64,000 nt of DNA from Tubulanus polymorphus (lineage: Eukaryota; Animalia; Nemertea): positions 1,918,416 through 1,982,415 of the forward strand of contig NC_134032.1 of the NCBI RefSeq assembly GCF_964204645.1. Direction: 5' to 3'. Both the position numbers and the translations under genes were made by a program. The notes beneath the pieces are model-generated. The model had not been told where the DNA came from, made no database searches, and was given only the letters and a program-made list of their open reading frames with translations. Shown here piece after piece: positions 26,158-36,100 of the stretch (position 1 is its first letter; every line of letters starts with the position of its first letter).

Positions 26158-26243
26158 CGCGTAGAGCGCAACGTTCTCAGGATCCGAACTGTTCTCGCGT
26201 GAGAGAATTTGAGCCCGAATCCGTCATAAAGCGCTCGCACGCG
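26158..26243 (-). promoter_or_regulatory. SECIS element (type II) in the selenoprotein U 3' UTR
   Basis: Minus strand: cgcgtgcgagcgc-ttt-ATGAC-GGATTCGGGCT-C-AAA-TTCTC(tcacgc)GAGAA-C-AGTTCGGATCC-TGAG-aacgtt-gcgctctacgcg. This gives helix I, the AUGA/GA core, an 11-bp helix II, unpaired AAA and an apical mini-stem. AATAAA follows at 25984-25989. Confidence 0.92.
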
Positions 26244-26784
26244 CTCGTTAACAGCTCGTTAGAATCGACGGTATCCAGTACCGAGTTTAAACGTTTTACA
26301 CGCGCCGTCGAATACAAAATAATATTTCAGGTGGTATGACGTCAAAAATACGTGATAATGACGTCATATCACAAAGCTAATATCTTTTCTTGAAAGATGG
26401 GGGTCATGTTTCTATCTGTTGATAGTACATTTATGGGGTCTAAAGTCATCCAGAAAAAAGTTATTGTTACTTCATGGCGGCCATTTTGAATTTATGAAAA
26501 TTAGGACCCTTGGATCTAAAGGATTTTGAATTTTATGATCAGAACCATCATATGAACTGTTTAAAACGAAGAAACCTTCTGTAGCAACTTAGTCTAGGTC
26601 TTTCGTATTTTTACTGGACTAAACCGCAGTTAGAATCGAGTACCGAGTTAAAAACGTTTTACACGCGCCGCGCAACTACATAAACAGGAAATAGGAACCT
26701 GTCAATATCGCGGAACAGTTGACTAGTAATCGGAACAGAGGTTAGGCCGCTATATACAGCGACGATCCTTGAGTTAGATACGTT

Positions 26785-33100: not shown

Positions 33101-36100
33101 TACGCCTGATGATGGCTAACAGTTGTACGCCTGATGATGCCTAACAGTTGTTAGACAAAACGTCGCTCCTCAAATACAATCATTCTGATATAGAATTTTT
33201 CAAACTTGGCTTCGTTATCGTGGGATTTCTCTCGTCATGCTTAACGATAATGACATGCGTGATAAATTTCAAAAGTCGAGAAAAGTTTCTCAGTTGTGAT
33301 AATTCGATTGTCCTCTTTTAGACACGGAAATTCGTTTGATTGAAAATAACCTATCCGCCGAAATTGTATGTGCTGGTAATGAAGACCACAAATCAAAACG
33401 CCTCATGTGAATTATATACGTAAAAGGAAATTTGGGTAAATAATTTCATGCAGAGTTAAAAGGACTGATGCTTAACCGGTAAAAATAAGAAATACAAAAT
33501 ATACGTATAAGGCTAAACAAAAATGATACCTTGTTTCTCCGCAGCGGCCGGGTCATTTTTGTAAAATATGATAAAATTTGTAAACAGTTCATTTCTATAG
33601 CGGCCGGGTCTGTTATGGTAAAATTGATCACGATTTTAAAAAAAGTAATGTATAGGGTAGATAGGCGGCCGGCCGGGTGAACATTTAAGCTCAGCAGAGC
33701 GGAGAAACAAGGTATCAAATTTTTTTTAGCCTAAGGATATACGATATTTAAGGCCACCATGAAACAATAAACCGTTGCAAACAATTTCAGCTCCTGTTTT
33801 CAAAATTAGTCACCTGTTTCATCTTCAGATTCCAATTTCCACAATATCAGCTCGATCGATACTCATCGTGAATCGATGAGGAAATCTAATATTCACATCG
33901 AGTGATTCTGTTTTTATTATCGGTAGCACGGGAACCCAACACTCTCGAAACCCTAGCCATGCAGAAAAACACTGATCTTTACACCTTGTCCTTGTCCCAG
34001 CATCAGCTTTTTGACACATATATATATATAACATTGAAAATGAACTAACCTTCGTATATATATATATATATGTATGTATATATATATATATATATATATA
34101 TATATATATATATATACACGAAGGTTAGTTCATTTTCAATGTTTTAACTCGGGGTGCAAATCTTAACTAACAACTGGAACATGCCATGGGAAGTGGGTTC
34201 GTGTTCCCGTAACCCGCCGATATATGCATAAACATGCTGCGTACGGTAACGCCACCTGCCGTTCCCATATCCCGGCAATTTCATAACGCGATTTTTTTCT
34301 CCCACAACCAAGTTCCTAGTGCCTTTTGTACGGTGTCAAAGGAGATAGAAACGTATTGGTACGGTAAAAAACAATTTTTTCTAGCTAAGGCTAAATCTCC
34401 GACCCCGCGAAGTAAGAAAGAATTACTTCCGATTTTTTTCATCGTACCGGCTGGCACGAACCCAGCATTATCGCGGACCCACGATAAATACCGGGTAGCT
34501 GGAAAATATTTGTACCAACTTAGTTAGCTGTTTGGGGTGTAGGCCTACTAACCATGCCGATATAGATGCGATCCTAAAACATCTACTTTTCGGGGATCTA
34601 TTAAGACCACTATCGCCATTTTTATTGTCATACTTAAACAACAGAATTTTTTATGATGACGGCTATCTGATCCCCGAAGATAAAGCTAGTTAGCAAGCGT
34701 AATATATCAAGTCATCTTAAATTGCGGGGCGTGACAAGATGGCTATGTCAACCAACCACCGTTCGACTTCTATTCAAAGCGCACATTTCTTTTGAAAACT
34801 CATAAACTGACCGATTCAAACTTCTCGAATATGAGAACGTGCGTTGATGTCAGATGTGTCGTGTTACATAGTATTGATTATACACAAACTGTTTTACGGC
34901 TTAACTCGAATCATCGGAACACTACAGAACTTCGCAACTGAATACTCAATGATTGAATTAAAATGTCATTTGCGGAAAGCGCAAACAAATGAAGATGAAA
35001 TTAAAAACATCGATGAAATTCATTCTATCTATGTATGGTTAATCGATGCTTAAAACGATGAAGTTACTAAGGATCCATAGCCTTTCGACCAATCAGCACG
35101 ATACCAATTAATTGAACAAGTAAACCAATTAGATTCCTGATATTTGAAACAATTTTTTTTCTAAATTACAGCACTGAGGATGTTCTTAAGACTAGATCGA
35201 CTGTGCTTCAGAAGGTTACTTTCTTTAGACCAGTGGTCAGAAATCATTACGGTACATTGTCACCTTCGCCTATACATGAATAGTATTATATTCTGTATGT
35301 GAGAAAAAATTTTGAAATTATGTAGATGATTGGTAATGATTATTTTCGTTTGATAACCTTTTTCCAATTCCTCAATATTTTAAGGAATCTCCGAATGATA
35401 AATAAAAGATTCGCATTAGTAAATATCACGTGGAAGCCTTAAACGTGAATGATCTTCCACCAAAGGTACTAAGTCTATAGTTTGGTATAATATATAACGT
35501 TTATATTGTTTATCTATTTAATTATACGATTTTCAAGTTGTGAAGTTCTGATGACGACAGGCTCGGAGACCATAAAACACAATTCGCAGGGAAGCCCACG
35601 AAACAGCAGTTCCCAGTGTTTTATCAAATTCCTCGCGTTTTTCCCAAAAGATATCAGATCCCCGTTTTTCAGAATCGTGGTCACCCGGTTCATTCTCAGG
35701 TAGGAAAAAAAATACTTCTTTTTCATTTGAATACCTCTCTGCACAAAGATCATCCGACCCTCCTCACTGCCATGATCACCGCACCATTATCTTTCCACAA
35801 GTCGCTCGCCTTAAAAGAAAAATTGAAACTTCTCATTCCCCTAAACTATTACCATCAAATGAATTCATTTCTATCCTGGTATCTGCTATACAGTGGCGCC
35901 ATCTGACGGGATAGCTGGTGCACTGGTACCCTTAACCCTTTCAGTGCGTCTACACCGCAGTGCGGTGTATAAATCAGTGATGGATTTTGCTAGTACACTG
36001 CACTGCGGTGTATTGATTTGATTAGTAATTATCTCTCTTGAAAGATGGCAGCACCTGTCAAAAACATAGTGAAATACTAGTAACTAACGATACACCGCGC

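Follow-up and report, generated by a model that had tools for sequence, protein, structure and literature searches.

The 64,000-nucleotide window of the ribbon worm Tubulanus polymorphus analysed here (contig NC_134032.1, positions 1,918,416 to 1,982,415) carries on its minus strand, between 36739 and 27160 in window coordinates, a gene of the SelU1/PRXL2A family. We propose that this five-exon gene is intact and that the UGA at its codon 75 is decoded as selenocysteine (Sec) by means of two RNA signals, a predicted selenocysteine insertion sequence (SECIS) in the downstream region and a predicted hairpin that splicing assembles just after the UGA, giving rise to a UxxC oxidoreductase; taken as a whole, we regard this explanation as highly probable. 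A first-pass annotation, made from the sequence alone, had read an in-frame TGA within a 75-nt exon, had followed the frame through three more PRXL2A-like exons and had placed a SECIS after the stop. Exon, splice flanks, codon and downstream exons, up to the terminal TAG, were all recovered as described. Its span, 26158..35809, takes in exons 2-5 and the SECIS but leaves the first coding exon outside, and of the recoding signals it named the SECIS but missed the hairpin.

All four introns of the gene (765, 6793, 789 and 597 nt) are GT-AG. The coding sequence (CDS) comprises 212 codons for a protein of 211 amino acids, with stops only at codon 75 (TGA) and at the terminal TAG; the single internal stop falls on the catalytic position, exon 2 reading ...AVRRVG*SLCRE with the TGA as asterisk, and there is no frameshift. 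When five full-length homologues were compared with the window by tblastn, exons 2-5 were matched by each of them, and exon 1 by three, weakly by one and by one not at all (P0104, P0034 and P0142 match it, with E up to 1e-4, and P0096 does not). An acceptor-like tract upstream of exon 1 suggests a 5′ untranslated exon further up. Searched singly, exon 3 gives PF13911 at E 7.4e-6 (26.8 bits, just below the cut-off of 27), and exons 1, 2 and 5 give nothing in Pfam. The hydrophobic N-terminus already remarked upon is encoded by exon 1; its hydropathy is 1.55, against 1.17-2.31 in 12 homologues, and from its sequence it is likely to be a leader or anchor for the endoplasmic reticulum (ER). Two repeats occupy the long intron: about 96 copies of AAT (28946-29230) end a few bases before the exon 3 acceptor, and a 25-bp tandem array in intron 2 (32479-33151) comprises 22.6 and 3.1 copies.

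The family assignment is firm. The ribbon-worm protein is 48-52% identical over about 210 amino acids to PRXL2A of molluscs, frog and mammals, which are the best full-length matches, and PF13911 is present in all best homologues; the highest identity overall, 71%, is with an unnamed protein that is truncated after the Sec site. A quick tree of 59 rows, with no named PRXL2C among them, places the ribbon-worm protein within the animal PRXL2A group with a support of 94 in the Shimodaira-Hasegawa-like approximate likelihood ratio test (SH-aLRT), next to Owenia and two unnamed proteins, and a set like prostamide/prostaglandin F synthase (PGFS), holding a PGFS-named protein, splits off at SH-aLRT 95. 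Its terminal branch of 0.25, against a median of 0.48, gives no hint of decay. Homologous genomic loci (e.g. L036, L049 and L053) share the introns after residues 80, 125 and 171, and L019 has the first two of these. The active site bears the family motif RRxG-[U/C]xxC with Val as x. That RRVG is unusual was rightly noted, since position 73 is Val in one of 149 homologues (P 128, F 10, L 3, A 3, T 2, V 1, S 1, M 1), with PGFS carrying Phe at the equivalent position; as a special novelty it was nonetheless rejected, because the position varies naturally. PxxxTxxC is the peroxidatic motif of peroxiredoxins proper; the site reads RRVG-U-SL-C instead, so that the protein is not one of them.

Conservation of the codon supports its reading as Sec, which we hold to be very likely. 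The TGA is aligned with the catalytic Cys or the TGA of homologues. In 54 homologous loci, found by C-terminal patterns that do not touch the Sec region, the site is covered 20 times and is TGA in 16 and TGT or TGC in four; L055, a contig described below, adds a seventeenth TGA. At the other 34 loci the site was not truly matched; L045 and L046 gave CAT, which was dropped as a pattern hit in non-coding sequence. Among 157 homologous proteins the catalytic column is CxxC in 58 and W, that is, TGA read as Trp, in three, while 79 start at residues 76-78, nine start later and nine lack the site (the tallies count the ribbon-worm model as one extra CxxC row). Ten homologue models skip the Sec site: they pass from the residues ahead of the motif directly into the following exon, at the position equivalent to 35767, and those whose source is shown are genome annotations. 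With 79 of 157 proteins cut after the site, nine without it and ten skipping models, truncation and mis-splicing, which had been anticipated for such genes, are common in the family.

According to the literature, which is cited here and below by accession, Sec-type SelU1 occurs in fish, birds, platypus and invertebrates, and the Cys type in therians, frogs, turtles and parrots (PMC3473315, PMC3316567, PMC13134290), with four or more switches of SELENOU1 to Cys among tetrapods (PMC13134290). CxxC proteins were seen here in four gastropods and a leech (P0096, P0104, P0105, P0109 and P0132) and in nematodes, at the protein level only, and bivalve, Owenia, coral and Biomphalaria models are cut at the Sec site or skip it. 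Together these sequences suggest several Sec-to-Cys switches in invertebrate SelU1, contrary to PMC3473315, according to which every invertebrate SelU1 has Sec. The ribbon-worm gene, an expected orthologue, adds a nemertean to the record of Sec-type SelU1; a literature search on selenoproteins and Nemertea, judged by titles and abstracts, returned no report of a nemertean SelU.

The codon is followed in the spliced mRNA by a predicted stem of 13 bp, closed by a 4-nt loop and interrupted by one bulge, which starts 8 nt after the UGA and in the ribbon worm is extended by a 5-bp basal stem. Seven bases of the 5′ arm lie in exon 2 and the rest in exon 3, across the 6.8-kb intron; because the arms sit in two exons the hairpin forms only in spliced mRNA, and the unspliced region folds at only −3.3 kcal/mol. 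In a 220-nt mRNA context the 13 main pairs have probabilities of 0.85-1.0. At −20.8 kcal/mol, with a z of −4.05 relative to 1000 synonymously recoded versions, the hairpin segment is the most stable of the 197 in-frame 45-nt segments of the CDS. The same comparison gives z from −2.1 to −4.7 in 15 of 15 TGA transcripts and +0.6 in each of the two Cys transcripts. The 15 include three close pairs (84-94%), the remainder having a nearest neighbour of 42-72% identity; at this position the fold is weak in two distant Cys loci as well. When 48 positions were scanned along 12 CDSs, leaving out L008, L013 and L016 as near-duplicates, only the start two codons after the UGA had a mean z of −3.4, with all 12 below −2, the next lowest mean being −1.5 in an overlapping segment.

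The pairing of the stem is conserved as well. With the structure taken from the ribbon-worm gene, itself absent from the alignment, 89.7% of 195 cells are paired, against 40-58% in slid-partner controls; two-sided changes occur at five of the 13 pairs, and the covariation score is reached by none of 500 shuffles, a test that relatedness may inflate. RNAalifold, unaided, recovers ten of the stem pairs in the same register. Codon choice within the stem is nearly fixed: Ser is TCC in 11 of 12 cases and in 29 of 199 elsewhere, and Arg is AGR in 14 of 15 and in 72 of 201 elsewhere. At the genomic locus L019 the stem forms upon joining the equivalent two exons, across the same intron, at −20.5 kcal/mol. 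That the stem is a structure under selection is well supported by these results. Its action as a Sec redefinition element (SRE), predicted from sequence, we consider probable. It also seems, with less assurance, to be undescribed for SelU, since full-text searches of the literature, with closer inspection of PMC3316567, PMC13134290, PMC8704476, PMC6844570, PMC5727441 and bioRxiv 10.1101/014928, brought up no SRE named for this family.

The SECIS-like element, which the first-pass annotation had placed about 920 nt after the stop, has its AUGA 933 nt after the stop, with the proximal part of helix I starting at about 923 nt; the distance from the UGA is 1344 nt if the 3′ untranslated region (UTR) is unspliced, and in mammals it ranges over 207-5207 (PMC3316567). 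It shows an 11-bp helix II (15 with the quartet), an unpaired AAA, a 5-bp apical stem, a long helix I and, at the base of helix II, the 5′ AUGA and 3′ GA tandem; AUGA, GA, bulged AAA and helix lengths match the descriptions in PMC2761289 and PMC1874613. The fold, of −45.1 kcal/mol, has a z of −4.1, and none of 200 shuffles was equally stable. Of 12,623 dinucleotide-shuffled versions of the 1260-nt UTR, 267 contained a loose SECIS pattern but none reached 11 bp and −17.2 kcal/mol, a combination that local 300-nt shuffles reached once in 41,523. With a total of −44.6, against −34.6 for the runner-up, it ranks first of nine loose candidates when both strands of the window are searched, and is not part of any repeat occurring elsewhere in the window. 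Candidates were obtained by at least one method in nine of the 15 TGA transcripts and in neither of the two Cys transcripts. A covariance model (R1), built from 15 homologue candidates without the window after L008 had been dropped as misaligned from the 16-row alignment, shows clear helix II covariation. We consider the element likely to be a functional type II SECIS, predicted and slightly atypical; the earlier word "canonical" was slightly too strong in view of its UGAG core and of a spacing from AUGA to AA of 13 nt, against 12 in aligned homologues. A 36-nt direct repeat (92%; 26273-26307 and 26635-26670), just upstream of the element, flanks about 330 nt of the presumed 3′ UTR and may mark an insertion or duplication. 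Directly after the distal AATAAA lies a dispersed repeat (25718-25953) with copies at 33492-33732, 21512-21697, 23458-23621 and 45495-45708.

Each part of this explanation has observations that weigh against it, and the alternatives draw on several of them. The one to be taken most seriously, although we think it rather unlikely, accepts that the gene makes a selenoprotein but gives the hairpin another job (splicing enhancer, mRNA stability, protein binding) or lets it follow from the CREEA..LSSL residues that it encodes. Many Cys proteins (12 of 26 non-nematode ones) keep these residues as well. Part of the 5′ arm is the terminal AG of exon 2, also favoured by the splice donor, and purine-rich exon ends can serve as splicing enhancers. 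L055, with its TGA and SECIS candidate, keeps the register but has a weak stem (−10.5 kcal/mol, z −0.8). The Cys controls are two close transcripts only, and of ten two-sided changes a single pair accounts for four and a single sequence, L029, for three. However, the same residues recoded synonymously give only −6 to −15 kcal/mol, two-sided changes preserve the pairs, the signal is confined to the post-UGA position and absent from the Cys transcripts, and the pairing, between arms in different exons, can count only once the mRNA is mature.

The SECIS is open to a more radical doubt, namely that it is non-functional or outside the mRNA and that the hairpin drives low read-through without Sec, as in insect SPS1-UGA genes; SREs can yield Sec-independent read-through (bioRxiv 10.1101/014928). 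Relative to the core consensus UGAN/KGAW (PMC3753652), which is a consensus whose invariant part is the GA/GA tandem, the ribbon-worm core UGAC/UGAG is off on its 3′ side, and in 19 homologue candidates the core ends in U (18) or A (one), never in G. The element is GC-rich and has, by our own reading of the numbering in PMC2761289, both features of weakly recoding human SECIS (G-C at +2 and U three bases before AUGA). Rfam gave no SECIS family match on 24000-37500 and 25900-27160, where its matches to miRNA families, falling on (TA)n and palindromic stretches, were rejected, and none of the 18 matches that R1 lists in the window up to E 10 is at 26227; the best, at the edge of the intron 2 tandem array (E 0.056), was taken as chance. 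Moreover, use of the proximal AATAAA would cut the SECIS off. All the same, Rfam matches only five of 20 homologous loci, two of them above the gathering score, and R1, whose training set is AU-rich with one base fewer between core and AA, also misses the held-out L008, so both methods miss good homologous candidates. The element, in the expected place and on the expected strand, goes far beyond chance, keeps AUGA, GA, AAA, the 11-bp helix II and helix I, and is accompanied by a retained resolving Cys78; read-through without Sec is accordingly very improbable. Two further readings deserve still less credence. The locus is known here from one genome assembly, as DNA sequence alone, and RRVG is two base changes away from RRPG, so that the gene could be a pseudogene with the TGA as a true stop, or a Cys codon could have been misassembled as TGA; but the same-site TGA in 17 homologous loci, the absence of any other lesion, the short branch, the two RNA elements tied to recoding and the natural variation of position 73 make this scarcely credible. 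Equally remote is a main mRNA spliced at the cryptic in-frame donor at 35767, yielding a protein without the UxxC site: that donor fits five of nine positions, equal by this crude score to the donor at 35734, and ten homologue models have the form, but the motif is kept in all 15 TGA and both Cys transcripts covering the site, the product would lose both redox residues, and the skipping proteins of known source are genome annotations. As to the Sec reading itself, no tRNA gene was found in a search of the 64-kb window; other lophotrochozoans have selenoproteomes (PMC3473315). As to the protein, 11 of 12 homologues have a more hydrophobic N-terminal helix, and the folded model discussed below is that of homologue P0104, not of the ribbon-worm protein.

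Table 1. Features of the SelU1 locus (window coordinates).
Feature	Position	Strand	Remark
Exon 1, first coding (55 codons, ATG)	36575..36739	−	Moderately hydrophobic N-terminal helix
Exon 2 (25 codons, 75 nt, flanked by AG and GT)	35735..35809	−	RRVG-U-SL-C active-site motif
Cryptic in-frame donor	35762..35767 (GT at 35767)	−	Use would drop 11 codons around Sec
In-frame TGA, codon 75	35750..35752	−	Catalytic position; homologues have Cys or TGA here
Hairpin, 5′ part (predicted)	35735..35749	−	Main stem from 35741; basal stem 35749-35745
Exon 3 (45 codons)	28807..28941	−	Pfam AhpC-TSA_2
Hairpin, top, 4-nt loop and 3′ arm (predicted)	28913..28941	−	Start of exon 3
Exon 4	27882..28017	−	FYGPKERW and GEGRLLGG motifs of PRXL2A
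Exon 5, coding part	27160..27284	−	TAG stop at 27162-27160, then TGA as next codon
Proximal AATAAA	26947..26952	−	Upstream of SECIS
Type II SECIS-like element	26150..26250	−	Long helix I around core, helix II and apical stem
SECIS, AUGAC	26227-26223	−	
SECIS, helix II	26222-26212 with 26190-26180	−	
SECIS, AAA	26210-26208	−	
SECIS, apical stem	26207-26192	−	
SECIS, 3′ core UGAG	26179-26176	−	
Distal AATAAA	25984..25989	−	Downstream of SECIS; candidate end of SECIS-bearing 3′ UTR

In the mechanism we propose for Sec insertion, SBP2 would bind the SECIS core and help eEFSec to bring Sec-tRNA, as in known eukaryotic Sec decoding, and the hairpin would slow the ribosome or disfavour release factors at the UGA, as the SREs of SELENON and SELENOP do. 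By analogy with homologues, the N-terminal helix would direct the protein to the ER or the secretory path, where Sec75 would attack a peroxide or disulfide and Cys78 would resolve the product. At low selenium, termination at the UGA, 150 and 286 nt ahead of the later junctions, would probably lead to nonsense-mediated decay.

The ribbon-worm protein is thus pictured, by analogy, as a likely redox enzyme of the ER or secretory path with a thioredoxin fold. Among solved structures the family profile matches only human PGFS (E 2.4e-25). The AlphaFold model of the limpet homologue P0104 (mean predicted local distance difference test score, pLDDT, 92.5) has a thioredoxin-like fold with an N-terminal helix at 2-21, and a Foldseek search with it gives PGFS as closest (E 3.2e-13), followed by AhpC (E about 6e-6) and ResA. 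Mouse PRXL2A is an ER-membrane oxidoreductase that acts through its CXXC upstream of protein disulfide isomerase (PMC4632174) and is partly secreted via a predicted signal peptide, residues 1-32 (PMC12267542).

Protein searches returned no entry for the ribbon-worm gene itself (best identity 71%). As none of the 320 fetched records bears U or X, a U-bearing entry may stay hidden, and the missing protein is not taken to mean that the gene is unannotated. Scans of prokaryote genomes gave no relative, and those of viral contigs gave one, L055, with none in a further scan. This contig, from a viral collection, carries an intronless SelU1 with TGA and SECIS candidate and, alongside it, an opposite-strand frame that may be a piece of an RNA-virus capsid (positions 47-778 and 1170-1655); possibly L055 is a host-virus chimeric assembly. 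P0032, a protein labelled as coming from a Candidatus Cardinium metagenome-assembled genome, has RRVG with Cys, clusters with nematode sequences and was not found in GTDB genomes; we ascribe it to contamination or transfer. Elsewhere in the window there are a single-ORF (open reading frame) COMMD8 gene (41932-42504, plus strand; Pfam COMMD8_HN and COMM) whose product clusters with a protein of the palaeonemertean Tubulanus polymorphus and shares 187 of 190 residues with it, which places the window in this species or a close relative, a 673-aa open frame (49229-51250, plus) with a reverse transcriptase domain (RVT_1, E 1.5e-36) that is likely to be a retrotransposon without long terminal repeats (non-LTR), a single-ORF rhodopsin-family G protein-coupled receptor (61282-62289, minus; 7tm_1, E 3.8e-14), an exon bearing tetratricopeptide repeats (56681-57010, plus) and a 530-aa Ser/Lys-rich open frame (45701-47293, minus) with no Pfam match.

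The gene shows once more that databases cut or mis-splice this family, but the post-UGA hairpin is of more weight than the gene itself. SREs are known from few selenoprotein mRNAs, studied mostly in mammals; because SelU1 has Cys there, an SRE common to the whole family would be easily overlooked, and because it forms only after splicing it would be invisible to a genome scan. We lean slightly towards the view that Sec-type SelU1 mRNAs carry an undescribed SRE split by an ancient intron, retained in homologues as distant as about 40% protein identity and lost with the replacement of Sec by Cys, and that in the ribbon worm a strong stem may offset a weak SECIS. If so, the many independent Sec-to-Cys switches in SelU1 would form a natural test of the decay of recoding signals, those of tetrapod SELENOU1 giving a direct test of whether stems are kept for Sec decoding.

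Compared with known systems, the ribbon-worm gene shares with SELENOU1 (PRXL2A, FAM213A, PAMM or adiporedoxin) UxxC at the CxxC site, the intron positions and a predicted N-terminal hydrophobic helix, and differs in having Val for Pro two residues before Sec and a UGAG SECIS core. PGFS (PRXL2B, SelU3; PDB 9us9), the closest solved structure, has the same fold and CxxC position, but lies on a separate branch, carries RRFG and is 24-27% identical to the folded homologue. The SECIS resembles the eukaryotic type II form (Rfam SECIS_1, SECISearch3 model) in its AUGA/GA core, 11-bp helix II, bulged AAA, apical stem and helix I, whereas it has UGAG instead of KGAW, is GC-rich and combines both weak-recoding features. 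SREs have been described for SELENON, SELENOT, SEPHS2 and SELENOP, and boost recoding without being essential (PMC8704476, PMC5727441, PMC6844570, bioRxiv 10.1101/014928); like these (SRE1 in SELENOP), the SelU1 stem is a stem-loop in coding sequence shortly 3′ of a Sec UGA, combined with a SECIS in the 3′ UTR (PMC8704476, PMC5727441). It differs from them in that a conserved intron separates its arms, in its start 8 nt after the UGA and in being known here as a predicted structure. The SRE of SELENON starts 6 nt after its UGA.

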